A stretch of 64,000 nt of DNA, from NCBI GenBank assembly GCA_034420735.1, contig DAOULA010000058.1, positions 13,154 to 77,153 of the forward strand, written 5' to 3'. The DNA is from Dehalococcoidia bacterium. Lineage in GTDB: Bacteria > Chloroflexota > Dehalococcoidia > Lucifugimonadales > CAJWER01. Under the pieces are notes generated by a model. That model saw nothing but the letters and a program-made list of their open reading frames with translations. It was not told the DNA's origin and did no database searches. Position 1 is the stretch's first letter. Each line of letters begins with the position of its first letter. This document shows positions 5,442 to 27,339 of this stretch, piece after piece. The position numbers and the translations under genes are program-made.

Positions 5442-6302
5442 ATGGCGCGAATTCACATCCTCGGCGCGGGTACGCCCACACCGACGGCCGAGCGTTTCGG
5501 CTCCTCTTTCGTCGCGGAGGTTGGCGGCGAGAAGATCATGGTCGACTGCGGCCCGGCCGCCACCCACAAGCTCGTGCAGGCCGGCCTCTGGCCGACCGAG
5601 ATCGACTACGTATTCTTCACCCACCACCACTTCGACCACGACGTCGACTTCCCGTGCTTCCTGCTGTGCCGGTGGGACCAGAGCATCGGCAAGGAGAACA
5701 CGCTGCAGGTCTTCGGGCCGACGCTGACGGAGCATCTCACCCACGGAATCATCGGCGAGGACGGCGTATTCGCCCACGACTGGAAGGCGCGCGTGAGCCA
5801 TCCCGCCAGCCAGCAGGTCCACGTGAACCGGGGCGGCACCCTCCCGCGCAGGCCGCCGGAGGTACTGGCGAAGGACGTGGGGCCCGGCAAGTTGTTCTCG
5901 GGCAGCGACTGGGAGATGACCGGGGCCCCGGCGGTGCACGCCCAGCCGTGGCTGGACTCCCTCGCATACCGGATAGACAGCGACGAGGGCAGCATCGTCT
6001 TCACCGGCGACACCGAGCCGTGCGATTCGGTGATCGACCTCGCCCGGGACGCTGACGTGATGTTCTGCATGTGCTGGGACGACGAGGAGTCCATGGAGGA
6101 GAACCAGGAGACCCACGGGGTCTGTGGGACGATGGGCGCTGCCCGCATGGCGCAGGAGGCCGGTGTGAAGAAGCTCGTGCTCGCACACCTCGGCCCGAAC
6201 CTCACCCGGCATCCTGTCATGGAGAAGGGCATCGGCGACGTGAAGAGCCGCTACGATGGCGACCTCGTATTCGCCGAAGAGCTGCTGGTCTTGGACGTGT
6301 GA
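5442..6302 (+). CDS. MBL-fold metallo-hydrolase, tandem paralog 2
   Basis: It has the HHHFDHD motif. The ATG follows AAGGAG. It is nearly identical to paralog 3. Confidence 0.9.
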   Translation: MARIHILGAGTPTPTAERFGSSFVAEVGGEKIMVDCGPAATHKLVQAGLWPTEIDYVFFTHHHFDHDVDFPCFLLCRWDQSIGKENTLQVFGPTLTEHLTHGIIGEDGVFAHDWKARVSHPASQQVHVNRGGTLPRRPPEVLAKDVGPGKLFSGSDWEMTGAPAVHAQPWLDSLAYRIDSDEGSIVFTGDTEPCDSVIDLARDADVMFCMCWDDEESMEENQETHGVCGTMGAARMAQEAGVKKLVLAHLGPNLTRHPVMEKGIGDVKSRYDGDLVFAEELLVLDV

Positions 6303-6341
6303 GTGCCGGTCGCACCCACTGCAGGAGAGGAGCCTGACGGC

Positions 6342-7202
6342 ATGGCGCGAGTGCACATCCTGGGTGCGGGTACGCCCACGCCGACCGCCGAGCGCTTCGG
6401 CTCCTCCTTCGTGGTCGAGGTCGCCGGCGAGAAGATCATGGTCGACTGCGGCCCAGCCACGACCTATAAGCTGGTCAAGGCCGGTCTGTGGCCCACCGAG
6501 ATCGACTACGTATTCTTCACCCACCACCACTTCGACCACGACGTGGACTTCCCGTGCTTCCTCCTCTGCCGCTGGGACCAGAGCATCGGCAAGGAGAACA
6601 CGCTGCAGGTCTTCGGTCCGACGCTGACGGAGCATCTCACCCACGGCATCATCGGCGAGGATGGCGTATTCGCCCACGACTGGAAGGCGCGCGTGGATCA
6701 TCCAACCGGTCAGCGCGTCCACGTGAACCGGGGCGGCACCCTCCCGCGCAAGCCGCCGGAGGTACTGGCGAAGGACGTGGGGCCCGGCAAGCTGTTCTCG
6801 GGCCGCGACTGGGAGATGACCGGAGCCCCGGCGGTGCACGCCCAGCCGTGGCTGGACTCCCTTGCATACCGGATCGACAGCGACGAGGGCAGCATCGTCT
6901 TCACAGGCGACACCGAGCCGTGCGACTCGGTGATCGAGCTCGCCCGGGACGCCGACGTCATGTTCTGCATGTGCTGGGACGACGAGGAGTCCATGGAGGA
7001 GAACCAGGAGACCTACGGGGTCTGTGGGACGATGGGCGCTGCCCGCATGGCCCAGGAGGCCGGGGTGAAGAAGCTCGTCCTGGCACATCTGGGCCCGAAC
7101 CTCGCCCGCCACCCTGTCATGGAGAAGGGCATAGGCGACGTGAAGAGCCGCTACGAGGGCGACCTGGTATTCGCAGACGAACTGCTGGTAGTGGACGTGT
7201 AA
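6342..7202 (+). CDS. MBL-fold metallo-hydrolase, tandem paralog 3
   Basis: The track ORF starts at 6303. The ATG at 6342 (MARVHILGAG) aligns with the paralog 2 start and follows GGAGAGGAG. Confidence 0.9.
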   Translation: MARVHILGAGTPTPTAERFGSSFVVEVAGEKIMVDCGPATTYKLVKAGLWPTEIDYVFFTHHHFDHDVDFPCFLLCRWDQSIGKENTLQVFGPTLTEHLTHGIIGEDGVFAHDWKARVDHPTGQRVHVNRGGTLPRKPPEVLAKDVGPGKLFSGRDWEMTGAPAVHAQPWLDSLAYRIDSDEGSIVFTGDTEPCDSVIELARDADVMFCMCWDDEESMEENQETYGVCGTMGAARMAQEAGVKKLVLAHLGPNLARHPVMEKGIGDVKSRYEGDLVFADELLVVDV

Positions 7203-13779: not shown

Positions 13780-14970
13780 TTGTCCACGACTACGGTCGAA
13801 GTCAAGCCCGAGATCCTCGTATGGGCGCGCGAAACGGCGGGGCTCGAGCCGGAGGATGCGGTCAAGAGACTCGGCATCCGCGACGCACGGGGGACGGCTG
13901 CCCTGGACCGGTTGACTGCGCTTGAGACGGGTCAAGCTGCGCCTACCCGGCCTATGCTCGTCAAGATGGCAAAGCAGTACCGTCGTCCACTCTTGGCCTT
14001 CTATCTTTCCGAACCGCCCAAGTCCGCTAGCCGGGGCGCCGACTTTCGAACCTTGCCTGCGGGATACTCGGACTCGCAGGCAGCGCAGATAGATGCGCTT
14101 GTTCGGGATCTGTATACCCGCCAGAGCATGGTACGTGCCGTGTTGGAGGACGAGGACGAGGCGGAAGTAGTCGCGTTCGTGGGCTCCGCAGAGATGTCTG
14201 ACGGAAAGCCCGCTGTTCTCAAGTCCCTGCGCAGCCTGTTGGATCTAGACCCAGAAACATACTACCGTCAGCCGAATGTAGAAGCGGCCTTCAAGCTCTT
14301 GCGGGATAGGGCTGGACGCCTGGGCGTGTTCGTCCTGTTGAAGGGCGACCTGGGAAGCTACCACACCGCAATGGATGCGGACGTATTCCGAGGGTTTGCG
14401 CTGGCCGACCCGGTGGCGCCGTTCATCGTCATCAACGATAGGGACTCTCGCGCCGCCTGGTCGTTCACACTCCTTCATGAGATGGTGCACCTCATATTGG
14501 GCCAAACAGGCATCGACGGTGCCAAGGTAGGCACGGATGTAGAACGCTTTTGCAACGATGTTGCCGGAGAGTTTCTGCTACCGGGGGCTGAGCTCGACGC
14601 GCTCGAAATCCCAACTAGCGCAGACCTGGAGGCAAGACAGCGGCTAATTGGCAACTTCGCTCAAGAACGCAACTTGAGCCGAACGATGGTCGCGTATAGC
14701 GCATACCGCCAATCTCTTATGGGACGCGATGAGTTCGAAGCCCTATCCGAAGTCTTCCGCCAGCAGTGGACGCAGCAGCGTCAGCCCACGCAGCGGCAGG
14801 AGGGTGGGCCAAGCTACTACACGCTTCGCCGGCATCGCATTGGGGATGAGCTCATCGGACTTGTACGCCGGACGATGGCCTCCCGCGCCCTCTCGCCGTC
14901 TAGGGCAGCCCGCATCCTTGGTGTTGCCCCGACTCAGGTCTACAGGCTGCTTGAGTCCGACATGGCATAG
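13780..14970 (+). CDS. HTH (XRE-like) + ImmA/IrrE family zinc metallopeptidase
   Basis: TTG start 9 nt after GAGGT. It has an N-terminal HTH-like region and the HEMVH (HExxH) motif in TLLHEMVHLILG. G+C is lower than in the neighbours. Confidence 0.8.
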   Translation: MSTTTVEVKPEILVWARETAGLEPEDAVKRLGIRDARGTAALDRLTALETGQAAPTRPMLVKMAKQYRRPLLAFYLSEPPKSASRGADFRTLPAGYSDSQAAQIDALVRDLYTRQSMVRAVLEDEDEAEVVAFVGSAEMSDGKPAVLKSLRSLLDLDPETYYRQPNVEAAFKLLRDRAGRLGVFVLLKGDLGSYHTAMDADVFRGFALADPVAPFIVINDRDSRAAWSFTLLHEMVHLILGQTGIDGAKVGTDVERFCNDVAGEFLLPGAELDALEIPTSADLEARQRLIGNFAQERNLSRTMVAYSAYRQSLMGRDEFEALSEVFRQQWTQQRQPTQRQEGGPSYYTLRRHRIGDELIGLVRRTMASRALSPSRAARILGVAPTQVYRLLESDMA

Positions 14971-14979
14971 GGCTCTCAG

Positions 14980-15462
14980 TTGCTATATCTGCTTGACGCG
15001 AACGTGCTAATCGACGCAAGAAGAGACTACTATCCGCCCGACAGGGTGCCTCAGTTCTGGCAGTGGCTGGTTGACATGGGCACGCGGGGCCAGATCAGGG
15101 TTCCCAAGGAGATATTCGACGACATCGCGAGAGGCAAAGATGAACTGGTAGATTGGCTGAGACTGAACAGACACACTCTGGTACTGGACGAGTACGCCCC
15201 TAGGGACCTGGTGGCCTACGTAACAGAACGAGGCTATGCCGATGACTTGGCCGATGACGAAATTGAAAAGATCGGCAGTGACGCATTCCTCATTGCGCAA
15301 GGGCTCGTCGATATAGGGAACCGCTGCGTTGTAACGACAGAGTCTTCCAAGCCAACTTCAACCAGAGCGAATCGGCGCATACCAGACGTTTGCCAGGATC
15401 TTCACGTGGAATGCATCGATACGTTCAAACTAATCCGGAGGCTGGATTTCCGCATTAGCTAG
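14980..15462 (+). CDS. DUF4411 family PIN-like protein (putative nuclease/toxin partner of ImmA/IrrE)
   Basis: The N-terminus MLYLLDANVLIDARRDYYPPDRVPQFWQWL and the C-terminal segment RIPDVCQDLHVECIDTFKLIRRL fit the DUF4411 pattern. The start lies 9 nt after the stop of the upstream gene. Confidence 0.75.
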   Translation: MLYLLDANVLIDARRDYYPPDRVPQFWQWLVDMGTRGQIRVPKEIFDDIARGKDELVDWLRLNRHTLVLDEYAPRDLVAYVTERGYADDLADDEIEKIGSDAFLIAQGLVDIGNRCVVTTESSKPTSTRANRRIPDVCQDLHVECIDTFKLIRRLDFRIS

Positions 15463-15516: not shown

Positions 15517-18285
15517 CTACTCCAAATCGCCCCAGTTGGCGCCTGTCTTTACGTCAACCTCTAGGGGCACCGCCAGGGTCATGGCGGCGGGCATGATCTC
15601 GTCGACCAGGCCCTTCAGCTCGTCCAGCTCGTCCTGGGGCGACTCGAATATCAGCTCGTCGTGCACCTGCAGGATCATCAGCGACCGGAGCTCGCGCCCG
15701 TCCATCTCGGCCTGCAGGCGCACCATCGCCAGCTTCAGGATGTCGGCCGCGGTCCCCTGGATGGGCATGTTGATGGCCATGCGCTCGCCCGCCGAGCGCT
15801 GGTGGAAGTTGGGCGAGCGAATCTCCGGGATGTAGCGCCGCCTCCCCTTCAGTGTCTCCACGTAGCCGTCTTCCTTAACGCTGCGCTTGATCCCGTCGAT
15901 GTAGCTCTCTATCCCCGGGTACTTGCCGAAGTAGGCGTCGATGAACGCCTTGCCCTCGTCCGGCGTCAGCCCTGTCTGCTGGCTCATCCCGAACGGGCTC
16001 AGGCCGTATATCACGCCGAAGTTCATGATCTTGGCGATGCGCCGCATCTCAGGGTCCACCTCGTCTATGCCCACCCCGTACACCGACGACGCCGTCGCCG
16101 CGTGGATGTCCTGCCCGCTCTCGAACGCATCGATCAGGCCCTCGTCCATGGACAGCTCCGCCAGGATGCGCAGCTCGATCTGCGAGTAGTCCGCCGCCAG
16201 CAGCGTCCACCCGGGGTCCTGTGCTATGAAGGCCTGGCGCACCTCGCGCCCCATCTCCGTGCGGATCGGGATGTTCTGCACGTTCGGGTCGTTGCTCGAA
16301 ACGCGCCCCGTCGCCGACCCGGTCTGGTGGTACATCGTGTGGACGCGCCCCGTCTCCGGGTTCACCTGCCCGGGCAGCGAGTCCAGGTAGGTCGACTTGA
16401 TCTTGGTAAGCTGCCGGTACTCCAGCACCCTGTCCAGCACCTCGACGGCCACCGGGTTGACGTCGTCCACAACACCCCTGTTGATCTCCTGCCTGAGCCA
16501 CTCGAGAGACTGTGCGTCGGTGGCGTACCCTGTCTTCCTCTTCTTGGTGGGCGGCAGCCTCAGCTCATCGAACAGCACGTCCCCAAGCTGGCGCGACGAG
16601 CCGATGTTGAACTCGTGGCCCACCAGCTCGTACATCCCCGCCTCGGTCCGCTCTATGTCCCGCTCGAACCGGTTGGACATGGCCGTCAGGTGGTCCACGT
16701 CCACCGCAACACCGTTGCGCTGCATCCGGACCAGCACTGGGATGAGCGGCATCTCGAACTCGGCCAGGGAGCCCGCGACCCCCTTCTCGGCGGTCTCTTT
16801 CGCGAGCGTGTCCCTGAGCTGCCAGGTAGCGTCGGCCCGGCCGCACGCGTGGCCGGACGCGTCCCCGATGGTCGCCTCCGCCATCGTGATCTGCTTCCTG
16901 CCAGTGCCGGTGATGTCCGTGACCGGCTTGAGCTCGATGTCCAGCGACTCCAGCGCCAGCGCCTCGATGCCCACGGCCTTGCGGCCGCCCACATGCGCCG
17001 CGATCATCGGGTCGAAGTCGACGTTGCGCACCGTGACCCCGTGCCGGGCCAGCACCGTCATGCCGTGGTTGGCGTCGTGTGCCGACTTGGGTATCGACTC
17101 GTCTTCCAGCACGCCCCGGACAGCGTCCAGCGCCGCTTCGAGCCCGACCTGCTCGCCCTCCGCGTGTCCGACAGGCACGTACCAGGCGGCGTTCGCCTCG
17201 TTCGAGAAGGCCATGCCCACCAGCTCGCCGTACATGGGATTCATGGCCGTCGAGACCACCTCGAAGGCGAACCCGCCGGGCGAGTTAAGGGCCTCCGCCA
17301 TCTCGCGCAGGCCCTCGGAGGTGTCGACCACCGCGTACCGCGTGTCCCGCTCCTCGGGCTCCGGGAAGAGCTGGGCCTGCGCAGGTTCCCCGTCGCCCTG
17401 CGGGTCCGGGATCCGCGGCACGATGCTGAAGAACTCCAGCTCCTTCAGCTTCTCCAGCACCTCGGCGCGGTCGTAGTTCCACATCCGCATCCCGTCCATG
17501 TCCAGGTCTAGGTCCAGGTTGCGCACGATCGTCGTCAGGAACTTGCCGCGCCGCAGCTCCTCCACGTGGTCGCGTATGCTCTGCTGGGTCCTCGGCGGCT
17601 TGACCTCGTCCAGCCGCTCGATGATCCCCTCGACCGACCCGAACTGCGTCAGCAGCTTGATGGCCGTCTTGGCCCCCACGCCCGGCACGCCGGGTATGTT
17701 GTCCGTCGTGTCGCCCTGCAGCGCCTTGATGTCGGCGACCACCTCCGGGCCGAGCCCGTCGTACCGCTCCTTCACCTTCGCCACGTCGTACATCGTCGTG
17801 CGCTGCACGCTGTAGCTGAGCAGCACCCGCACCCGGTCCGACACCAGCTGGAGCTCGTCCGTGTCGCCCGTCAGCACCACCGTGTCGACGCCCTGCTCCT
17901 CGGCCTTCGCGCACAGCGTCCCCAGCACGTCGTCTGCCTCGTACCCCTCCCGCTCGAGCACGGGTATCCGGAACGCGTGCATGATCTCGCGCACCCGCTC
18001 GACCTGCTGCCGGAGCTCCGGCGGCATGGGCGGGCGCGTGGCCTTGTACTCGTCGTACTCGGCGTGCCTGAAGGTAGGGCCCGACAGGTCGAAGGCGATG
18101 GCGCAGTGCGTGGGCTCCAGGTCCGACAGGTTGCGCAGGAAGGTGTTGAGGAAGCCGTAAACGCCGCGCACCTCCTCGCCGGTCGTCCTGACCGTCATGG
18201 GGTTCTGGATGGCGTAGAAGGCCCTGTACACCATCGCGTGCCCGTCGAGCAGCACCAGCAGCGGCTTGTCGGCCGAACGTGTCAT
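15517..18285 (-). CDS. polA: DNA polymerase I
   Basis: 922 aa. It has a 5'-nuclease domain, a 3'-5' exonuclease-like domain and family A polymerase motifs (DYSQIELR, QVHDE). Confidence 0.97.
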   Translation of the reverse strand: MTRSADKPLLVLLDGHAMVYRAFYAIQNPMTVRTTGEEVRGVYGFLNTFLRNLSDLEPTHCAIAFDLSGPTFRHAEYDEYKATRPPMPPELRQQVERVREIMHAFRIPVLEREGYEADDVLGTLCAKAEEQGVDTVVLTGDTDELQLVSDRVRVLLSYSVQRTTMYDVAKVKERYDGLGPEVVADIKALQGDTTDNIPGVPGVGAKTAIKLLTQFGSVEGIIERLDEVKPPRTQQSIRDHVEELRRGKFLTTIVRNLDLDLDMDGMRMWNYDRAEVLEKLKELEFFSIVPRIPDPQGDGEPAQAQLFPEPEERDTRYAVVDTSEGLREMAEALNSPGGFAFEVVSTAMNPMYGELVGMAFSNEANAAWYVPVGHAEGEQVGLEAALDAVRGVLEDESIPKSAHDANHGMTVLARHGVTVRNVDFDPMIAAHVGGRKAVGIEALALESLDIELKPVTDITGTGRKQITMAEATIGDASGHACGRADATWQLRDTLAKETAEKGVAGSLAEFEMPLIPVLVRMQRNGVAVDVDHLTAMSNRFERDIERTEAGMYELVGHEFNIGSSRQLGDVLFDELRLPPTKKRKTGYATDAQSLEWLRQEINRGVVDDVNPVAVEVLDRVLEYRQLTKIKSTYLDSLPGQVNPETGRVHTMYHQTGSATGRVSSNDPNVQNIPIRTEMGREVRQAFIAQDPGWTLLAADYSQIELRILAELSMDEGLIDAFESGQDIHAATASSVYGVGIDEVDPEMRRIAKIMNFGVIYGLSPFGMSQQTGLTPDEGKAFIDAYFGKYPGIESYIDGIKRSVKEDGYVETLKGRRRYIPEIRSPNFHQRSAGERMAINMPIQGTAADILKLAMVRLQAEMDGRELRSLMILQVHDELIFESPQDELDELKGLVDEIMPAAMTLAVPLEVDVKTGANWGDLE

Positions 18286-19413
18286 CTACCCGGCCCCCTG
18301 CTCTCGCCCCGATTCGCCCACGCCGTTCGAGGAGGCGTGGGCAACGCTGCCGTTCACGCCACCTGGCCCTTCGATGGGCGGGTTCGTGAAGTGCAGCAGG
18401 TACTCGAAGGTCGTGCCCATGGTGATGTAGTTACTCGGCCAGCCGAAGATGCCGACCCGGTTCACGATGTTGGTGCGGTCCCAGATTATTGTGTTGCGGA
18501 ACTCGTAGCCCGCCTTCCTGAGGGCCTCGACGACCGATATGTGGATCGTGACGCGCTCGCCCTCCCACCACATGTCCGGCACGTTCACCACGCAGTGGCC
18601 CCCCGGCTTCAGGACCTTCCGAATACCGCCGAAGATGGAGCGCATGGCCTCAGAGTACTCGTCTAGCGGCATGGTGCCCAGGTCGCGAGGGTCCTGGGAG
18701 TACTGCTCGACTGCCCCCAGCTGCTCGTTCTTGCGGTCGCGGCGCGACTTGTTCCGCCTCTGCCTGTTCAGCAGGTTCGCGTACGGCGGCGACGTCAGCA
18801 CCAGCGACACGCTGCCGGGCTCCAGGTACTCGGCAACGCTGGATGCGTCGTCCTGCACGGCCACTTGGGCAGTGCTCGTAAACAGCCCCGCGCCTCCAAG
18901 CCGGGACTCCGAGAGGTCGACGTACCCGGCGTGAAGGTCGAAGCCCACGGCGTTGCGATTCGTGTCCTGGGCGGCCACGAGGGCCGTGCCGCTGCCCACG
19001 AACGGGTCGAGCACCAGCTCGCCCTCGTGGGTGAACAGCTCGATCACCTTAGTCGCCAGGGAGATGGGGAAGGTCGCGGGGTGCAGCTTCTTGTCGCGGA
19101 TGTCCCGGCCCTGGTAGTTGAACTGCCACACGCCTAGCTGGCTCTTCAGCCACTCCTTGGCCGTCAGGCAGTTCAGGTGGTTGGGCTTGCACTCGCACAG
19201 CCGCCCGCCGCCGATAGGCAGGCGCGTCCGGTATAGACCGCTGCCATCCCTGACCGCACGCGGCAGCCCTTGGCTCGCCAGCGTCTCGGCAGCCCCATCT
19301 GAGGCACCGGTCGCCCGCCCGTCCGTTATGGTGTCGCCCATGGGGTTCCCATCCTGCTTCAGGTGCATTGTATACCCAAGCCCGCCGCCCGCGCCCTTGC
19401 TGGACTCCGGCAT
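18286..19413 (-). CDS. DNA methyltransferase (N6-adenine or N4-cytosine type), no cognate nuclease nearby
   Basis: The SAM-binding motif DPFVGSGT is followed by the catalytic SPPY motif. The start is taken at MPESSKG (19413), and the track ORF extension to 19782 does not look like protein. The stop TAG directly abuts the polA ATG. Confidence 0.8.
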   Translation of the reverse strand: MPESSKGAGGGLGYTMHLKQDGNPMGDTITDGRATGASDGAAETLASQGLPRAVRDGSGLYRTRLPIGGGRLCECKPNHLNCLTAKEWLKSQLGVWQFNYQGRDIRDKKLHPATFPISLATKVIELFTHEGELVLDPFVGSGTALVAAQDTNRNAVGFDLHAGYVDLSESRLGGAGLFTSTAQVAVQDDASSVAEYLEPGSVSLVLTSPPYANLLNRQRRNKSRRDRKNEQLGAVEQYSQDPRDLGTMPLDEYSEAMRSIFGGIRKVLKPGGHCVVNVPDMWWEGERVTIHISVVEALRKAGYEFRNTIIWDRTNIVNRVGIFGWPSNYITMGTTFEYLLHFTNPPIEGPGGVNGSVAHASSNGVGESGREQGAG

Positions 19414-19724
19414 CTCAACTACCCAACTGCCCCTTGACAAGCATAGCACATTCGTACTACTATAGTCTCGGTAGGAAGGGGAGAAGATGAGCCCGAGCCC
19501 CTCCGGGTCCGCTCGCCGTCGGGATGGAGCGGGCCCGTGGTGTTTACAAAGCGCCTTCGAGGTCAAGCACGGCAACTCGTCCGGAGCCGTAACTGTAGCG
19601 TCTACCCCCTTTCCGGGTGCGGGTATATCCGTATTGCCGTCGCACACCCTTTGGCTGAGCAGCAAGGTCACTGGGTCTGCGGAAATTGTTGATAGAGGGC
19701 GGCGAACTGCCGCCGCTTCAGAGA

Positions 19725-19852
19725 CCGGAGCGCGTCTCCCAGGGATCCGTTGACTATCGCAGTGTGTGATCAAACCGCCCACTCAAAGTGGGCACGGTCG
19801 AACATTCCGGCTCCGCGAGGCAGCGGGCCAACCTGACAGAGACGCGCTCCGG
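19725..19852. repeat. 14-bp perfect inverted repeat closing a 100-nt loop inside a non-coding spacer
   Basis: ccggagcgcgtctc (19725-19738) and gagacgcgctccgg (19839-19852) are perfect complements. The loop contains the hairpin GCCCAC-tcaaa-GTGGGC (19777-19793). Confidence 0.6.
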
Positions 19853-20059
19853 CCCCATCGAAAGAAGAACCGAGAGTACCGACAGAAAAGACGAAGCTAG
19901 GTAGAGGCGAGACACAAGGAGAAGCTGGCGAGACGAGATACAATCGAATATAGCCTGGTGATCGGTGGCCCCGCAGGCCTCCGGCGCTGATATCTGGCCT
20001 GGACGTCGCTTGCGTCCTGTGCCGGATAAAGACGGGCAGGAGGTGAGGGCAGCGTGCCG

Positions 20060-21901
20060 CTAGACGACCCGGCGGTCGGCCCGCAGCCACTCTCCGCGAA
20101 GCTCCGCGCTTAGCACATGGCCGCAGCGATCCAGGATTGCGTCGCCCAGGGCCGCGGCCTCCGTGTCGACGATGGCCTGCGTGTCTTCGAGCGACGCGCT
20201 AGCTGGGGCGTAGTGCTGCACGTAGATTTTCAGCTTGGGCTCGGTGCCTGAGGGCCTGACGGTGACGCGCGTCCGGCGGTCTTCGGACAGGTACAGCGTC
20301 ACGATGTCGGCCGCTCCGCCCATGCGGTATGCGTCCGGCGCCCGCGCGGTCTCGTCCAGCCTGTCGTCCATACCGGTTACCGCCATCCCGACCAGGCTCG
20401 GCGGAGGGCCCGCTCGCAGGCCCAGCATCACCTCGGTCATCACGTCGCGCCCGGAGCTGCCTGGCAGCTCGACGAGCAGCAGCGCGTTCCTGTAGTAGCC
20501 GTACTCGCGGTAGATCTCGTCGAGGTACATCGGCACCGTCGCGCCCCTGTCCTTGAGGTGCGACGCCATCTCGCACACGAGCAGTGCGCCTATGGCCGCG
20601 TCCTTGTCGCGCACGAAGTCGCCCGCCAGGTAGCCCAGGCTCTCCTCCGCCGCGAACACGAACCGCGACGGGTCGTCCAGCCCGCCGATGACCTGGGCGA
20701 TGAACTTGAACCCGACCAGCAGGTCGTCCACCGGCTCCAGGCCGAAACTGCGGGCTACGTCCGCGATCAGCCCGGTCGTCACCAGCGTCTCGATCACCAC
20801 CTCGTCGCCGCGCAGTTCGCCCGCGTCCCTGCGGCGCGAGAGGATGTGGTGGGTCAGCGCCGCGCCCACCTGGTTGCCCGTCAGGGCGCGGACCCCTGCG
20901 GCCTCCAAGTCCGTCCTGGCCGCGACGCCGATGCGGTCCGCGTCCGGGTCGGCGCATATGGCGATGTCTGCTCCTACCTGCTCCGCGAGCCTTACCGGCA
21001 GCGCCATCACCTCGGCGAACTCCGGGTTGATGAGGTCGCCCGCCGCGGTCGGGAAGCCCTCGTCGGGCTCCGCCTGCTCCGGCACCACGGTCACTTCGAA
21101 CCCCTCGGCACGCAGCACCGGCAGGACGTTGGTCGAGCCCGCGCCGTGCATAGGGCTGAACACGACCTTCGCCGACCTGCTCTCCTCAGCGGCCAGGCCC
21201 CGAACGGCGCCCAGGTACGCCTCGTCGACGCCTGCGCCTATGGTCGACACGAGCCCGTTTGACCTCGCCCGGGCCAGCCCCATGCGGCGCACCTCGTCGA
21301 CGTCCGTGACGAGCTGCATGAATCGCGCGTCGTGGGGCGGCACCACCTGCCCGCCGTCGGACCAGTAGAACTTGAACCCGTTGTCGGTCCGCGGGTTGTG
21401 CGACGCCGTGATCTGTACACCGGCCGTTGCCCCCAGGTGGCGCACGGCAAAGGACACCTCCGGTGTGGAGCGCAGGCCGTCGAACAGGTGCGACCTTATG
21501 CCGTTGGCCGCGAACACCTCGCACGACAGCTCGGCGAACTCCCTGGACTGCCTGCGGGCCTCGTGGCCCACCACGACGCCCGCCTCCCTCGCGTCTGCCC
21601 CGTAGTCGTCGATGAAGGCGCTCAGAGCCTGGGCCGCCTCGCCGATGGTGCGGGCGTTGATGCGGTTGGGGCCCGGGCCGAGCGGGCCTCGTATGCCGCC
21701 CGTGCCGACCCTGAGCCTGGAGGCGAAGGCGTCCTCGATCTCGTCCCAGCGTTCGTCCGCTGCCAGGGTCTCGATCTCAGGGACGAAGGCCGAAAGGCCG
21801 GGGTCTGTCAGCCAGCGGTCGAGATTGGCGAGGGCGGCCGGACTCAGCCTGCCTGAGGATGCAGCCGTGTCGAGTACCCGTTTGGCGGTGCGGCCAGCCA
21901 T
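20060..21901 (-). CDS. alpha-D-phosphohexomutase family protein (phosphoglucomutase/phosphomannomutase)
   Basis: It has the active-site loop TASHNP (QITASHNPRTDNGFKFY) and a Mg-binding DPDADR segment. Confidence 0.9.
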   Translation of the reverse strand: MAGRTAKRVLDTAASSGRLSPAALANLDRWLTDPGLSAFVPEIETLAADERWDEIEDAFASRLRVGTGGIRGPLGPGPNRINARTIGEAAQALSAFIDDYGADAREAGVVVGHEARRQSREFAELSCEVFAANGIRSHLFDGLRSTPEVSFAVRHLGATAGVQITASHNPRTDNGFKFYWSDGGQVVPPHDARFMQLVTDVDEVRRMGLARARSNGLVSTIGAGVDEAYLGAVRGLAAEESRSAKVVFSPMHGAGSTNVLPVLRAEGFEVTVVPEQAEPDEGFPTAAGDLINPEFAEVMALPVRLAEQVGADIAICADPDADRIGVAARTDLEAAGVRALTGNQVGAALTHHILSRRRDAGELRGDEVVIETLVTTGLIADVARSFGLEPVDDLLVGFKFIAQVIGGLDDPSRFVFAAEESLGYLAGDFVRDKDAAIGALLVCEMASHLKDRGATVPMYLDEIYREYGYYRNALLLVELPGSSGRDVMTEVMLGLRAGPPPSLVGMAVTGMDDRLDETARAPDAYRMGGAADIVTLYLSEDRRTRVTVRPSGTEPKLKIYVQHYAPASASLEDTQAIVDTEAAALGDAILDRCGHVLSAELRGEWLRADRRVV

Positions 21902-21916
21902 GCCGGACGCCGGCCC

Positions 21917-23143
21917 CTAGCGACCGCCGGCGCGTCCCCAGTCCTCGCGAATGGCCTCCGCCCTGTCGGTCCGCTCCCACGGAAGGTCCAGGTCGTCGCG
22001 TCCGAAGTGGCCGTAGGCGGCGGTCTGCTTGTAGATCGGCGCCCTCAACCCCAGGTCACGGATGATCGCGCCCGGGCGCAGGTCGAAGTGCTTGTCCGCC
22101 AGCTCGACGATGACGTCGTCCGGCGCATGGTTCGTACCGAAGGTCTCGATGGACACGGACATGGGCTTCGCCATTCCGATGGCGTACGAGACCTGAATCT
22201 CCAGCCTGTCGGCCAGCCCGGCCGCCACCAGGTTCTTGGCGACCCACCTCGCGGCGTAGGCCGCCGAGCGGTCGACCTTCGTCGGGTCCTTCCCGGAGAA
22301 CGCGCCGCCGCCGTGCCTGGCCATGCCGCCGTACGTGTCGACCAGGATCTTGCGCCCGGTCAGCCCGGCGTCGCCCTTGGGGCCGCCTATCACGAACCGG
22401 CCGGACGGGTTGACGTGGTACTTGGTGTCGTCGTCGAGCAGGTCTGCCGGGATGGCGGCGGCCGCCACGTGCTCGATGAGCTTGCTCTCGATCGTCTCCT
22501 GGCTCACGTCGGGGGAGTGCTGCGTGCTCAGCACCACCGTGTCGACCCTCTTCGGTTTGCCGTACGCGTACTCGACGGTAACCTGCGACTTGCCGTCGGG
22601 CCGCATGAAAGGAAGGAGGCCAGATTTCCTGACCTCCGCCATGCGTCTGGTGAGCCTGTGCGACAGGGCGATCGGCATGGGCATCAGCTCGCCGGTCTCG
22701 TTGCAGGCGTAGCCGACCATCATCCCCTGGTCGCCTGCGCCGAGCATCTCGATGGCCGCGTCGCTCGCGTCCACCTCGCCCCTGACCTCCAGCGCAACGT
22801 CCACGCCGCCCGCGATGTCGCTCGACTGCCGGTTCAGCGACACGATAACCGCGCACGACTCGTGGTCGAAGCCGTACTCGGAGTCCGTGTAACCGGCGTC
22901 CCTGATCGTGCTCCGCACGAGGTCCGGCACGTCGATGCGGGCCTCCGTGGTTATCTCTCCCAGGACGACCACCAGCCCGGTCGTCGTGCACGCCTCGCAG
23001 GCCACGCGCCCCTCGGGGTCCTGGGCCAGGATGGCGTCGAGCACTGCGTCGGAGACCTGGTCGCACAGCTTGTCGGGGTGACCCTCCGTCACCGATTCCG
23101 AAGTGAACAGGTACTTGGGCGACTCGCTAAGGCTGTACGGCAC
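21917..23143 (-). CDS. metK: S-adenosylmethionine synthetase
   Basis: It has [15 protein letters not shown] and GGGAFSGKD motifs. The GTG start at 23143 lies 6 nt after GGAGGA, and the track ORF extends to 23185. Confidence 0.95.
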
Positions 23144-23185
23144 TTCTATTCCTCCATCGTCTCTAGGGTGTTCGGCCTTGCACAT

Positions 23186-23213
23186 CCGTCATTCCCGCGA
23201 GGGCGGGAATCCA
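23186..23213 (+). repeat. dispersed hairpin repeat, family B
   Basis: The sequence ccgtcattcccgcgagggcgggaatcca matches 26 of 28 nt of the copy at 8598-8625. It lies between the ahcY stop and the metK start. Confidence 0.7.
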
Positions 23214-23255
23214 GAGTGGCGGCGGGCGGTTTGGCTTACGCCGTTTTCTATCCCA

Positions 23256-24539
<1,284 letters not shown>

Positions 24540-25541
24540 CTACCGGCCACGCGTGCCGGGCAGCGACTCGCCCTCGCCTAGCGGGGCGAACGCAGTTATG
24601 TCCGTAAGCGTCCTGAACCGTCCCTCGATGTCGTCGCGCTCCAAAGAGCATACACGGTCGAGGCTGAAGCTCTCCACCGCGAACGACCCCATTACGGTAC
24701 CCACGATGGCGGCCCTGCGGAACCCCGAGGGGCTGAGGTCGCCGGTCGCCGCGAGGTATCCCACGAACCCGCCGGCAAAGCAGTCGCCGGCCCCCGTGGG
24801 GTCGACCACGCCATCCACCGGGTGCGCCGGAGCCGCGAACAGGCCCGACTCCTGCACCAGCAGGACCCCGTGCTCGCCCCGCTTGGCGACCACGACCGCC
24901 GGGCCCATCTCCATGATACGCCGGGCGGCCGCGAGCAGGTTCGCCTCGCCCGAGAAGCTCCGCACCTCAGTCTCGTCCATGAAAAGCACGTCGACTTCGC
25001 TCACGACCCTGTCGAGGGCCTCCCTGCTGCCGTCGATCCAGAAGTTCATCGTGTCCAGCGCGACCAGCCTGGGCCTATCGGCCATCTGGTCGAGCACGGA
25101 CATCTGCAGCTCGGGGTCGTTGTTGGCCAGGAACAGGTAGCCCTGGTTGCGGTGGGCGTCGCTCAGTCTTGGCGCGAAACCGGCCAGGACGTTGAGCTGG
25201 GTGTCCAGCGTGTCCCTCGTGTTCACGTCTTCCGCGCCGTACACGCCGGACCACCTGAAGGTCCTGCCCTGCTTGGTTTCAAGGCCCGACAGGTCGACGC
25301 CGTGGGACTCCAGCAACGTAACGTGGGCCGGGTCGAAGTCGTCGCCTACCACGGCGATCAGCCCGACGTCCGTGAAGTAGCTGCCGGCCACCGAGAAGTA
25401 GGCGACCGAACCGCCCAGGGCCTCCTCGCGGCGTCCCGCCGGGGTCTGTACGGTGTCGTAGGCGACCGTGCCCACCGCCAGCACGGCGCCAGGCAGTCCG
25501 GGGCGGAAGCGCCCGTCTGAGCTCGAAGGGGAGTCTGTCAC
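24540..25541 (-). CDS. PfkB-family carbohydrate/nucleoside kinase (probable adenosine kinase by context)
   Basis: It has the PfkB C-terminal motif DPTGAGDCFAGG. It sits between ahcY and mtnP. Confidence 0.75.
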   Translation of the reverse strand: MTDSPSSSDGRFRPGLPGAVLAVGTVAYDTVQTPAGRREEALGGSVAYFSVAGSYFTDVGLIAVVGDDFDPAHVTLLESHGVDLSGLETKQGRTFRWSGVYGAEDVNTRDTLDTQLNVLAGFAPRLSDAHRNQGYLFLANNDPELQMSVLDQMADRPRLVALDTMNFWIDGSREALDRVVSEVDVLFMDETEVRSFSGEANLLAAARRIMEMGPAVVVAKRGEHGVLLVQESGLFAAPAHPVDGVVDPTGAGDCFAGGFVGYLAATGDLSPSGFRRAAIVGTVMGSFAVESFSLDRVCSLERDDIEGRFRTLTDITAFAPLGEGESLPGTRGR

Positions 25542-25542
25542 C

Positions 25543-25896
25543 CTATTCGTCGGAGCCGTAGCTGGCCGGGAGGCCGCGCTCTATCCACGCCTCCGCGCCG
25601 TCCTCGATGTTGAACAGCCTCTCCGTGTCGAACCCCATCGCCGCGGCCATCTCGCAGGCCAGGCCGCTGCGTACGCCCTGCGCGCAGATGAACAGCAGGT
25701 TCTTGTCGTCAGGGAGCTCGTCGATCCGCGCCAGCACGTCGTCGACCGGAATGAATACGGCACCCTTGACGTGCCCGGCCTCGTACTCGTCGTCCCTCCG
25801 CACGTCCACGACCACCGACTCGCCGGCTTCGTACATCTCGCCGGCCTCGTCCAGGCTGACGCGGTAGTAGGGCTCACCTTGTTCACGTCTGGGCAT
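25543..25896 (-). CDS. rhodanese-domain protein (single-domain sulfurtransferase)
   Basis: It has the active-site loop CAQGVRS. The ATG at 25896 lies 5 nt after GGAGG, and the track ORF starts 12 nt earlier at 25908. Confidence 0.8.
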   Translation of the reverse strand: MPRREQGEPYYRVSLDEAGEMYEAGESVVVDVRRDDEYEAGHVKGAVFIPVDDVLARIDELPDDKNLLFICAQGVRSGLACEMAAAMGFDTERLFNIEDGAEAWIERGLPASYGSDE

Positions 25897-26770
25897 CGGC
25901 ACCTCCATGCGGCTCCACGTACCGGCCTATCAGGGCCGACAGCCGCGCTCTCGTTTCATTCCCGATCAGCTCGGGACTAGTAATTATCGCATTCTCCAGG
26001 GCCGATGCGCATCCACAACTTCGCTCGGAAGGGACCTCAGGCACGAGAGAGCGGACAACCCGGCGTGACGCGTCGACGTTCTTCAGCAGGTTCTGGACCA
26101 CAAGCTCGACCGAGACCTGCTCCTCCGTCTCGTGCCACGTGTCGTAGTCGGTGACCAGTGCGAGGGTCGCGTAGCACATCTCGGCCTCGCGGGCCAGCCT
26201 GGCCTCAGGCAGGGCCGTCATGCCAATGATCGCCGCGCTCCAGGAGCGGAATAGCTCCGACTCCGCCCGTGTCGAGAACTGCGGGCCCTCGATCACAACG
26301 CATGCGCCGCCCCTGTGCGCCGTAGCCTCGCCCGACGCGGCCTCCCACACGGCATGACCCAGGACCGGGCAGTAGGGCTCGGCGAAAGCGGTGTGCACGA
26401 CGATGCCCTCGTCGAAGAAAGTGCTGGGCCGCCCCCGGGTGCGGTCGATAAGCTGGTCCGGCACGACCATGTCCAGCGGCCTGATCCGCTCCTGCAGGCT
26501 GCCGACCGCACTGATGGACACGACCCGCTCGACTCCCAGGAGCTTCAGCGCGTAGATGTTGGCGCGCGCCGGAAGGTTGCTGGGGGAGATCCTGTGGCCG
26601 CGCCCGTGCCTCGGCAGGAAGGCGACCCTCTCGCCCGACAGATTCCCGACGACGATGCTGTCGCTCGGGGCGCCGAACGGGGTGTCCACGTCCACGGCCT
26701 GGGGCCCCTCGAGGCCGTCCATCTCATACAGGCCGGACCCGCCGATGAACCCGATTCGCGCCGTACTCAA
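25883..26770 (-). CDS. mtnP: S-methyl-5'-thioadenosine phosphorylase
   Basis: It has IGFIGGSGLY and FLPRHGRGH motifs. The TTG start overlaps the stop of the upstream gene (TTGA). Confidence 0.9.
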   Translation of the reverse strand: MSTARIGFIGGSGLYEMDGLEGPQAVDVDTPFGAPSDSIVVGNLSGERVAFLPRHGRGHRISPSNLPARANIYALKLLGVERVVSISAVGSLQERIRPLDMVVPDQLIDRTRGRPSTFFDEGIVVHTAFAEPYCPVLGHAVWEAASGEATAHRGGACVVIEGPQFSTRAESELFRSWSAAIIGMTALPEARLAREAEMCYATLALVTDYDTWHETEEQVSVELVVQNLLKNVDASRRVVRSLVPEVPSERSCGCASALENAIITSPELIGNETRARLSALIGRYVEPHGGADAQT

Positions 26771-27339
26771 TCGTCGAATATTTCGCTCACCGCACAGGTG
26801 AAACCGGGAAGCGCGTCCAGGCCGTCGAGGGAGTCGTGCTCAGTAAGTGAAGTAACTGCGCGGCCGCTTTGGTAGACGTCCACTGTACGCGTGTCCGGAT
26901 ACACGACCCACACAAGGCGGACCCCGTGGCCGAGCCACATGAAGGCCTTGTCGTTGACCTCCCTGACAGTGTTGCTGGGGGACACGACCTCCACCACAAG
27001 GTCGGGGGGCGTCTCGGCGTAGCCCGTAACCCTCACGCCCGGAGGCATCTTCTCAGCCGAGAAGTACGCTATGTCGGGTTCGCGCACTGTGTCGGGGTCG
27101 CGCTCCAGCCAGACTCCCGAATCCGATCCGACTAGCCTACCCAGCTCTCTGGGCTTGGTGAAGTTCTTCAACTCAGCGCCCAGGTTCATAACTATGGTGC
27201 CATGCTCAATTCCTGCCGGCATCGTTTCGCAAAGCACCCCCCGGATCAGCTCGCCGCGAACGCCCTTGGCGTCGAGTCGCAGCAGGTCGTCGGCGGTCAG
27301 CAGTTTGGTCTTCGTAACCGTGGCGCTCGTCATGTCCAA
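26767..27339 (-). CDS. Uma2 (DUF820) family putative endonuclease
   Basis: It has the family pattern GELIRG...EHG...PDIAYF...PDLVVEVVSPSN. Confidence 0.8.
   Translation of the reverse strand: MDMTSATVTKTKLLTADDLLRLDAKGVRGELIRGVLCETMPAGIEHGTIVMNLGAELKNFTKPRELGRLVGSDSGVWLERDPDTVREPDIAYFSAEKMPPGVRVTGYAETPPDLVVEVVSPSNTVREVNDKAFMWLGHGVRLVWVVYPDTRTVDVYQSGRAVTSLTEHDSLDGLDALPGFTCAVSEIFDD

Follow-up and report, generated by a model that had tools for sequence, protein, structure and literature searches.

What is a DNA methyltransferase gene doing immediately upstream of polA, in a region where genes of the SAM cycle lie on the same strand? We analysed a stretch of 64,000 nucleotides (hereafter, the window) from an uncultured Dehalococcoidia bacterium, together with related genomes and with other loci of the same methylase family. 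The joint explanation that we regard as highly likely is that the gene encodes a solitary class-E Type II methyltransferase, with predicted m4C modification at CC(W/N)GG, that its locus is coupled to polA, and that its adjacency to the SAM genes is accidental.

A first-pass annotation of the window had called a minus-strand ORF ending in TAG (18288-18286), in which DPFVGSGT lies N-terminal to SPPY. This ORF exists, with its reading frame open back to 19782, and DPFVGSGT indeed precedes TSPPY. Counting all residues from the ATG at 19413 assigned in that annotation, HPATFP corresponds to residues 111-116 (19083-19066), DPFVGSGT to residues 136-143 (19008-18985) and TSPPY to residues 207-211 (SPPY at 18792-18781), and 164 residues follow SPPY, close to the 170 or so estimated earlier. 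The start codon, on the other hand, had been placed 24 codons too far upstream, as judged from the alignment of homologues and the comparison of leaders. The true start is most likely ATG 19341 (M25 of the longer ORF), because the homologues begin at that Met, the upstream ATG is out of frame in the relative L039, and ATG 19413 borders an insertion specific to the window and lies upstream of a −10-like box conserved in the genus. The features of the locus are listed in Table 1.

Table 1. Coordinates of the methylase, its sequence elements and its neighbours in the window.
Feature	Positions	Strand	Basis or remark
Methyltransferase CDS, revised (predicted start)	18286..19341	-	351 aa + TAG; earlier version reached 19413
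CxCx3Hx2C cluster, N-terminal region	19168..19197	-	Conserved; AF2 pLDDT ~90
Motif X (HPATFP) to motif I (DPFVGSGT), AdoMet-binding half	18985..19083	-	PF01555 positions 137-220 of 221
Catalytic motif IV, TSPPY	18781..18795	-	64 residues after motif I
Genus-specific 30-residue low-complexity C-terminal tail of the methylase	18289..18378	-	Extends to the polA start
TAG-ATG stop-start junction, methylase/polA	18283..18288	-	Read directly; minus strand gggTAGATGaca
polA, DNA polymerase I, 922 aa	15517..18285	-	NF004397 1026 bits, TIGR00593 921 bits
Leader GGGTATACAATGCACC with −10-like TACAAT (19372-19367)	19362..19377	-	Probable promoter of the methylase-polA unit
Window-specific insertion, ~640 bp, phosphohexomutase stop to methylase leader	19404..20045		In relatives the flanks are ~10-60 nt apart
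Phosphohexomutase (PGM/PMM family), ancestral upstream neighbour of polA	20060..21901	-	Pfam PGM_PMM domains I-IV
metK, ahcY, PfkB kinase, mtnP (SAM cycle, MTA salvage)	21917..26770	-	Context only, not part of the feature

The segment that runs from motif X to motif I consists of residues that are invariant or nearly so in alignments A1 and A2, and the PF01555 profile positions that it matches represent the C-terminal part of beta-class enzymes. In an alignment of 62 sequences, motif I was invariant at G, G and T and motif IV at T, P, P and Y, with the S of the latter conserved in at least 90%; in beta-class N4C enzymes, 8s9m for example, it is the N-terminal half that aligns with motif IV. 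The cysteine-rich cluster that precedes these motifs (C73, C75 and C82 invariant and H79 at least 90% conserved in A1, at least 90% conservation in A2) may be a zinc or DNA-recognition element. The C-terminal tail, absent in homologues outside the genus, is a different kind of sequence: within the genus its dN is ~0.14-0.39 versus 0.04-0.08 for the methylase core, its pLDDT in the AF2 model is below 50, and it contains the G-rich ribosome-binding region of polA. When an origin of its 30 codons was sought in the 3' end of the nuclease gene of the sister species G006 and in the PGM-polA spacers of outgroups, only the last ~15 nt were alike, and these correspond to the polA ribosome-binding region.

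The Pfam comparison proposed in the first-pass annotation identified PF01555 (N6_N4_Mtase) with a score of 104.7 bits (cut-off 26.7; E = 8.7e-30) in two non-colinear stretches that were also recovered in a six-frame search of the genome, and the PADLOC model MTase_II PDLC03363 matched end to end (E = 1.9e-134). By these matches the protein is a PF01555 DNA amino-methyltransferase, circularly permuted relative to the beta-class enzymes. The order IV-VIII, TRD, X-I-III of the beta class is replaced here by X-I-III followed by IV-VIII, and the protein is therefore homologous to that class (Malone) and not a member of it by topology. Class E has been defined by a SAM motif that precedes the catalytic motif by less than 100 aa, by B-type profiles that match in two pieces and by the lack of an inserted TRD (bioRxiv 10.1101/2023.12.13.571470). 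In the window protein 64 residues separate T143 from S208, PF01555 matches in two pieces, and the AdoMet-binding half (motifs X, I-III) lies ahead of the catalytic half (IV-VIII), which corresponds to the topology of class E, typified by M1.BcnI. An AF2 model based on 20 sequences (pLDDT 44) was set aside; the model obtained with the 62-sequence alignment (pTM 0.75) showed the canonical Rossmann methyltransferase order, with only a short helix-strand linker between the halves. Comparison of this model with the PDB using Foldseek retrieved generic unpermuted Rossmann methyltransferases, with archaeal Trm11 at the top (E = 2e-10, TM ~0.40). We discarded the Trm11 matches as a clue to the substrate, since they merely reflect the shared unpermuted Rossmann order.

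The family to which the methylase belongs is highly conserved across many phyla (61-88% identity) yet patchily distributed: it was present in 23 of 300 sampled Chloroflexota genomes, and the species-genome collection contains members on at least 577 contig stretches. Among the best 80 loci, 60 carry an endonuclease gene directly downstream (55 MvaI-like and five Ecl18kI/PspGI-like, that is, EcoRII-C-like), and a cognate nuclease is also adjacent in G006 and G035. This is a classical restriction-modification family, whose methylase and endonuclease (MvaI-like or Ecl18kI/PspGI-like) normally form a two-gene cassette. Its restriction-modification nature had not been recognised in the first-pass annotation. 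In the cassettes the nuclease gene always follows the methylase immediately, the place that polA occupies in the window.

The identity of the partners in those 60 loci is the reason to predict N4-cytosine methylation of CCWGG or CCNGG; by inference, the enzyme would use SAM to methylate the inner cytosine of the site at N4. The MvaI-like partner of the family is far closer to R.MvaI (CCWGG; E = 3.7e-16) than to R.BcnI (3.4e-5), and the partner nuclease found in the genus matches R.Ecl18kI (CCNGG; 3.5e-15) and then PspGI and EcoRII (CCWGG). The two partner types differ at the central base of that site, which may be W, N or S. The type of modification is suggested by the methylase itself: its best sequence match among solved structures is a DNA cytosine-N4 methyltransferase, and it combines an SPPY-type motif IV with an m4C enzyme as its closest characterised relative. 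SPPY has been reported as the N4C hallmark of M.MvaI and M.PspGI (PMC2532716).

No endonuclease gene is adjacent to the methylase, as had been stated, and a tblastn search of the whole 3.15-Mb assembly (89.7% complete) with the two usual partner nucleases of the family gave no match. As a positive control, the Ecl18kI/PspGI-like query (P0127) was matched in G006 and G035; the MvaI-like query was matched in none of the genomes searched. These nucleases, taken from related loci, were used in place of a search with Pfam PF15515 and PF09019, which matched neither in the genome of the window nor in the control genomes. Neither partner type being found in the genome, the methylase is taken as solitary, in agreement with its earlier description as an orphan; this search recognises homologues, and a non-homologous cognate nuclease lies outside its reach. 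The partner nucleases were likewise not found in five other genomes of the genus (93-97% complete), except for a distant EcoRII-like ORF of 409 aa elsewhere in G003. CCWGG and CCSGG are not avoided in the genome of the window (observed/expected 0.98 and 1.03), which is compatible with an orphan and does not discriminate the target.

The methylase TAG immediately precedes the polA ATG at 18285, as the first reading of the sequence had it, and the presence of the methylase upstream of polA in relatives, proposed then as a check, was confirmed, with the junction conserved within the genus. The upstream stop codon abuts the polA start in all nine genus genomes that carry an insert (TAG-GTG in one of them). 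From this abutment, and from the fact that polA's own TGTATAAT box is missing between the two genes, the methylase is very probably expressed with polA, as had been proposed. The arrangement is also kept in G006, in which a nuclease gene precedes polA, and in G001, in which a degraded remnant of the methylase does; the remnant has lost its methylase domain, yet its reading frame is still uninterrupted between the original ATG and the TAG at polA. It follows that the link between methylase and polA concerns gene architecture and not the function of the methylase, because the TAG-ATG coupling persists with an endonuclease or a destroyed remnant upstream. We infer that polA would share a transcript with the ORF that precedes it, whichever that is, and that its translation would be coupled to that of this ORF.

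The leader GGGTATACAATGCACC does not vary among the eight genus loci that were compared, which include the G001 remnant and the methylase-nuclease locus of G006, and its TACAAT is the only strict −10-like hexamer on the minus strand within 18200-19450. It also resembles GGTGTATAATC, found before polA in genomes with an empty site. The conserved hexamer and the resemblance to the outgroup box indicate that this leader is the probable promoter of the methylase-polA unit. An Rfam scan of 18000-20300 gave no match.

To trace how the gene reached this position, the genus can be compared with its surroundings. Those other genera of the host family that were searched did not yield the methylase. Outside the species that bear it, the PGM gene adjoins polA, which is preceded by a conserved TGTATAAT box: G009 and G014 show empty sites, with PGM beside polA plus the box, G004 and G011 likewise have the box, and the PGM-polA spacing in genera without the methylase is ~95-145 nt. 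Within the genus, the methylase sits between a box similar to TGTATAAT and polA. It is syntenic and solitary in seven of ten genus genomes, and the PGM-methylase-polA order is seen in G002, G003, G005, G007 and G008. Its place, between the phosphohexomutase gene and polA, is downstream of a −10-like box resembling what may be the ancestral polA promoter. The GC3 of the methylase is host-like (0.89-0.92), and this, together with its syntenic position in seven species, argues that it is a long-term resident of the locus. Its core evolves with a dN/dS of 0.10-0.24, and from this purifying selection the enzyme is probably active. At least two members of the genus dispense with it, one having a remnant (G001) and the other nothing (G004), and any cellular role is therefore not essential.

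These data tentatively suggest a possible course of events. A mobile restriction-modification cassette, or the methylase alone, may have landed between the polA promoter and the polA start codon, and polA would since have depended on transcription of the upstream ORF and on ribosomes terminating there. Given such a dependence, selection would preserve an open leader cistron ending in TAG-ATG at its 3' end, be it methylase, nuclease or nonsense remnant. The orphan, by keeping CC(W/N)GG methylated, could then have provided a safe landing pad for the capture of a cognate nuclease gene in G006, by recombination at the 3' end of the methylase.

We considered it unlikely, although worth weighing, that the ancestor of the genus had instead the complete methylase-nuclease cassette before polA and that the nuclease gene was deleted in the lineage of the window, leaving the methylase as a recent restriction-modification relic. 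The sister species G006 does carry methylase, EcoRII-C-like nuclease and polA with the same TAG-ATG junction, and the family tree places it as sister to four orphan rows (support 100/99); moreover, the enclosing Dehalococcoidia clade mixes nuclease-linked and solitary members, and the identities of methylase and nuclease co-vary between cassettes. However, the nuclease gene of G006 has a GC3 of 0.61 versus 0.92 for the adjoining methylase and polA, whereas in cassettes elsewhere both genes have a similar, low GC3. The break in composition and a rising identity to foreign cassettes start in the last ~90 nt of the G006 methylase, a pattern that fits a later capture of the nuclease gene by recombination with a resident methylase, and the 30-codon tail of the orphans is without similarity to the 3' end of the nuclease gene.

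The genes upstream on the same strand are those listed in the first-pass annotation (phosphohexomutase, metK, ahcY and mtnP), plus a PfkB kinase. The equivalog models TIGR01034 (metK), TIGR00936 (ahcY) and TIGR01694 (MTAP) of NCBIfam scored above their cut-offs; NF005657 (MTAP) was the best-scoring model for mtnP, with 378 bits, under its cut-off of 453. We judged a functional tie between the methylase and its neighbours improbable, whether as an epigenetic regulator or repair-associated enzyme working with Pol I or through a SAM supply from metK and ahcY. Such a tie would accord with the genus-wide abutment with polA, with the purifying selection on a core that has no adjacent nuclease, and with the position of the SAM-cycle genes. 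Against it, none of the 80 loci examined shows the family beside polA, PGM or metK outside the genus, its contexts there being unrelated; PGM and polA also adjoin each other where there is no methylase, and the coupling outlives the exchange of the upstream ORF in G006 and G001. In this genome only, a repeat-bearing insertion also parts the methylase from the upstream genes. It carries a dispersed repeat of ~470 bp (~19434-19897), with at least six more copies in the genome (79-89% identity), as well as a TTGACA-N18-TACTAT site on the plus strand (19434-19463), and its plus-strand RNA folds with z = −3.2. Because the PGM-polA adjacency is older than the methylase and the family occurs elsewhere in unrelated contexts, the pairing with the SAM-cycle genes, for which a functional meaning had been entertained, is judged coincidental; the adjacency is an accident of the insertion site.

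It also seems very improbable that the methylase belongs to an active restriction-modification system whose endonuclease escaped recognition, by being non-homologous, by lying in the 10% that the assembly lacks, or by being a Uma2-family gene. The incompleteness of the assembly leaves some room for this, and a Uma2 gene (PF05685, "putative restriction endonuclease") is found at 26767-27339, 7.4 kb upstream, with Uma2 genes convergent to solitary family members at three other Dehalococcoidia loci. Nevertheless, no gene resembling either partner type of the cassettes was found in the genome, the same holds for the five other genus genomes apart from the G003 ORF, neither CCWGG nor CCSGG is avoided, and the position directly downstream, where cassettes have the nuclease, is taken by polA. 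Finally, it is scarcely credible that the protein is an RNA m2G methyltransferase of the Trm11/Trm14/RlmL type and not a DNA methylase: although these enzymes share the order motif I to (D/N)PPY, Trm11 headed the Foldseek matches and weak colinear matches to PF01170 and to Trm14 models were obtained, PF01170 scored 18.3 bits (cut-off 22.3) versus 104.7 for PF01555, the NCBIfam Trm14 models gave at most ~24 bits versus cut-offs of at least 280, the protein has no THUMP or other RNA-binding domain, and a Type II endonuclease gene directly follows the gene in three quarters of its close relatives.

The gene is thus a real but ordinary DNA methyltransferase of a known kind, from a widespread restriction-modification family. 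Its most plausible role would be to keep the genome methylated at CC(W/N)GG, which would protect it from incoming cognate nucleases and allow such nucleases to be captured, as may have occurred in G006. What was an unnamed "DNA methylase" of an uncultured Dehalococcoidia becomes a solitary class-E methylase, probably m4C at CC(W/N)GG, and its proposed connection with SAM metabolism need no longer be entertained; taken alone, such a gain in annotation is routine. The comparative picture is mildly instructive, suggesting that the expression of an essential housekeeping gene can come to be tied to a gene derived from a restriction-modification system, that this tie, the TAG-ATG coupling, can outlast the methylase itself, and that an orphan of long residence can gain a new partner in a nuclease gene of foreign composition. 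Given the high conservation of the family across many phyla, a single specificity assay would annotate the members on the contig stretches counted above.

A plasmid search gave only distant colinear relatives (23-31% identity) with generic names, and our literature search found no methylome paper on this family in Chloroflexota. M1.BcnI (M.BcnIA) and M4.BstF5I also match beta-class (PF01555-type) profiles in two pieces, with the SAM motif less than 100 residues before the catalytic motif and no TRD between the halves (bioRxiv 10.1101/2023.12.13.571470). M1.BcnI belongs to a CCSGG system whose nuclease shares the Pfam family MvaI_BcnI with the commonest partner of the present family; the likeness considered here is one of topology, and neither M1.BcnI nor M4.BstF5I is represented among the PDB matches of the window enzyme. 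It differs in that the partner nucleases of the present family resemble R.MvaI far more than R.BcnI, and in that the window enzyme has no partner nuclease at all. M.MvaI and M.PspGI, N4C enzymes of CCWGG systems (PMC2532716, PMC3001055), share the SPPY catalytic motif, the association with MvaI-type or PspGI/EcoRII-C-type nucleases and the predicted modification Cm4CWGG; M.PspGI, to judge from the residue numbers quoted in PMC2532716, differs in being longer than 332 residues.

The solved beta-class structures (the N4C methyltransferase 8s9m, TTHA0409 2zig, M.PvuII 1boo, M.RsrI 1eg2 and CcrM 6pbd) have homologous motifs, with E values down to 1e-17. Their halves, however, are swapped relative to the window enzyme, in which residues 108-173 correspond to their C-terminus and residues 196-321 to their N-terminus, and the equivalent of their central TRD is split between its N- and C-termini. 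The clade-conserved orphan methylases Dam, CcrM and Dcm differ from it: conservation of the window methylase ends at the genus, with loss or decay in two of the ten genomes; its family is linked to restriction-modification and horizontally mobile; and its predicted product is m4C, not m5C or m6A. As with these orphans, the window methylase is solitary, syntenic in several species of its genus and under purifying selection, and CCWGG, its predicted site, is also the site of Dcm.

Re-reading of the sequence confirmed the minus-strand ORF that the first-pass annotation had described as an orphan DNA methyltransferase, ending at TAG 18288-18286 and followed directly, as it had noted, by the three bases of the polA ATG. 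Numbered from the ATG at 19413, where that annotation had placed the start, HPATFP occupies residues 111-116, DPFVGSGT (motif I) residues 136-143, and TSPPY (motif IV) residues 207-211 with 164 further residues behind it, so that motif I precedes motif IV as proposed. However, the start is most likely the ATG at 19341 (M25 of the original ORF), because homologues begin at this position, the equivalent upstream ATG is out of frame in a relative (locus L039), and a -10-like box conserved in the genus comes only after ATG 19413, which is also at the edge of an insertion specific to the window. Profile matches also recovered the phosphohexomutase, metK, ahcY and mtnP genes that had been listed upstream on the same strand.

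Location of the features discussed, in the window unless a relative is named
Feature	Position	Strand	Remarks
polA	15517-18285	minus	1026 bits vs Pol I equivalog
Methylase, from its probable start	18286-19341	minus	
Phosphohexomutase, metK, ahcY, PfkB kinase, mtnP, Uma2 gene	upstream of methylase	same as methylase	profile matches
Uma2 gene	26767-27339		7.4 kb upstream of methylase
Insertion, ~640 bp	19404-20045		this genome only
Dispersed repeat, ~470 bp	core ~19434-19897		
HTH + ImmA/IrrE (Peptidase_M78) gene and DUF4411 gene	13780-15462	plus	convergent with polA 3' end
Methylase-nuclease locus, sister species G006	L041 4923-6786		mosaic
Methylase remnant, relative G001	L119 1168-1500		
Distant EcoRII-C-like ORF, relative G003	G003:C1:3523937-3524323		409 aa
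Solitary family member with Uma2 gene	L053, L054, L057, ~5950-6830	minus	three other Dehalococcoidia genomes
BsobI-family endonuclease gene (PF09194)	L035 7721-8428		Anaerolineae cassette

A stop codon abutting the polA start was found in 9/9 insert-bearing genomes of the genus (TAG followed by GTG in one), be the upstream ORF the methylase, a nuclease (G006) or a remnant (G001). The G001 remnant lacks ~870 bp of the methylase, and its leader and first 8 codons are fused, with a frameshift of 1 nt, to codons ~300-372; a reading frame of ~100 codons nevertheless runs uninterrupted from the original ATG up to the TAG that adjoins polA. The chance of this is ~0.03-0.08 by a rough hand estimate, not computed with a tool, that uses the stop-codon frequency at ~65% GC and one-in-three odds of the right frame. 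Co-expression of the methylase with polA is well supported by this comparison, and that part of the proposed link stands; what is conserved is the architecture rather than a functional partnership. The pairing with SAM-cycle genes, offered earlier as possibly functional, is coincidental, because this neighbourhood is older than the insertion and the family occurs in unrelated settings elsewhere. The methylase is a new solitary member of an already known family, which the first-pass annotation spotted correctly and whose function it over-interpreted.

Inspection of relatives, which had been suggested as a check, located the methylase between the phosphohexomutase gene and polA in G002, G003, G005, G007 and G008, as in the window. 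Only the remnant is left in G001, and G004 has no methylase; two genomes of other genera in the family, G009 and G014, have polA ~95-145 nt after the phosphohexomutase gene with no methylase between. An extended -10-like box, GGTGTATAATC, is perfectly conserved 30-50 nt before the polA start in G004, G009, G011 and G014 (L120-L123). These four genomes, of which three belong to other genera, lack the methylase, and their polA is 65-74% identical. In this Dehalococcoidia family, the box is likely the promoter of polA. Wherever the insert is present, the locus has one and the same leader, GGGTATACAATGCACC, ~25 nt ahead of the methylase start codon; it resembles the outgroup box, and no other strict -10-like hexamer occurs on the methylase strand between 19450 and polA. 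We infer that the insertion fell between the promoter of polA and its start codon. The host-like composition of the methylase (GC3 0.89-0.92) and the dN/dS of its core (0.10-0.24) indicate that it is an old, selected resident of the locus.

The sister species G006 carries, in order, the methylase, an intact gene for a 270-aa EcoRII-C-type nuclease (Ecl18kI/PspGI-like) overlapping the methylase stop, and polA, whose ATG adjoins the nuclease stop. This order could represent an ancestral pair whose nuclease was lost outside G006. However, GC3 is 0.61 for the nuclease gene vs 0.92 for the methylase and polA, a compositional break and rising identity to foreign cassettes start within the last ~90 nt of the methylase, and in cassettes elsewhere both genes share a low GC3, which makes an ancestral pair doubtful. 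For these same reasons we favour a later capture of the nuclease gene, which was probably acquired by recombination with the resident orphan methylase.

The orphan status claimed for the methylase held in the window's genome: neither partner nuclease type, nor the BsobI-like neighbour, gave a tblastn match in the 3.15-Mb assembly (89.7% complete), and the control query, an Ecl18kI/PspGI-like nuclease (P0127), picked up the genes expected in G006 and G035. The genome shows no avoidance of CCWGG or CCSGG (observed/expected 0.98 and 1.03, respectively). The partner nucleases are also missing from five other methylase-bearing genomes of the genus, with the exception of one ORF in G003, which has 30% identity to the G006 nuclease and the length of full-length EcoRII, and lies far from the otherwise solitary methylase. 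Separately, solitary family members convergent with a Uma2 (PF05685) gene were observed in other Dehalococcoidia.

Conservation of the family is unusually high, with 61-88% identity among members from Chloroflexota, Poribacteria, Bipolaricaulota, Myxococcota, Nitrospirota, Spirochaetota, archaea and further groups, and the species-genome collection contains at least 577 contig stretches that encode a relative. Distribution is patchy (23/300 evenly sampled Chloroflexota genomes), and the family was not found in the other searched genera of the window's own family. Among the 80 best loci, an MvaI_BcnI-family endonuclease gene lies immediately downstream in 55 and an EcoRII-C-type gene in 5; 19 have neither, and two loci are truncated. 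The MvaI-like partner matches R.MvaI (CCWGG) over its full length (E 3.7e-16) and R.BcnI (CCSGG) only at E 3.4e-5, and for the EcoRII-C-type partner R.Ecl18kI (CCNGG) is the nearest enzyme, ahead of PspGI and EcoRII (CCWGG). TSPPY is kept throughout the family alignment, and published work regards SPPY as typifying N4-cytosine enzymes, among them M.MvaI and M.PspGI (PMC2532716; PMC3001055). Because of these partners and this motif, the enzyme is predicted to place m4C on the inner cytosine of CCWGG or CCNGG. In L035, the BsobI-family gene follows the MvaI-like nuclease gene, and no second methylase gene was called among the listed neighbours. In L050 and L076, the tblastn match crosses a stop codon in a poorly conserved N-terminal stretch, which may simply precede the actual start codon or may reflect decay of these copies.

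The window-specific insertion separates the phosphohexomutase gene from the methylase leader. Genus relatives lack its repeat at this site, and the window's genome has at least six further copies (79-89% identity), internal in contig C39 and at the ends of C31, C6, C45, C79 and C64. A TTGACA-N18-TACTAT site on the plus strand of the insertion leads to an RNA that is more stably folded than shuffled sequences (z = -3.2, vs -1.1 for the other strand). Rfam gave no match for the region, which may be a multi-copy ncRNA or a small mobile element. Elsewhere in the window, the HTH-ImmA/IrrE and DUF4411 pair looks like a toxin-antitoxin-type cassette.

The assignment as a DNA methyltransferase was upheld by Pfam PF01555 (N6_N4_Mtase; 104.7 bits), which matches in two non-colinear pieces, residues 89-169 aligning to profile positions 137-220 and residues ~196-321 to the N-terminal half. 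Solved beta-class enzymes give the same two-piece pattern, the best being 8s9m, a DNA cytosine-N4 methyltransferase; this pattern indicates that the beta-class order is circularly permuted here. A Type II methylase model of PADLOC aligns along its full length (E 1.9e-134), so enzymes of the permuted form already make up an established family. The AF2 model (62-sequence alignment, pTM 0.75), disordered in the N-terminal 23 and last ~27 residues, has the canonical Rossmann methyltransferase order, and accordingly the Foldseek hits are RNA and small-molecule methyltransferases of unpermuted order, Trm11 ranking first. An RNA methylase was ruled out: PF01170 is under cut-off, profile search found no THUMP domain, and the family's genomic partners are endonucleases. 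The 64 residues between the SAM and catalytic motifs fit "class E", a recently proposed topology founded on M1.BcnI and M4.BstF5I (bioRxiv 10.1101/2023.12.13.571470).
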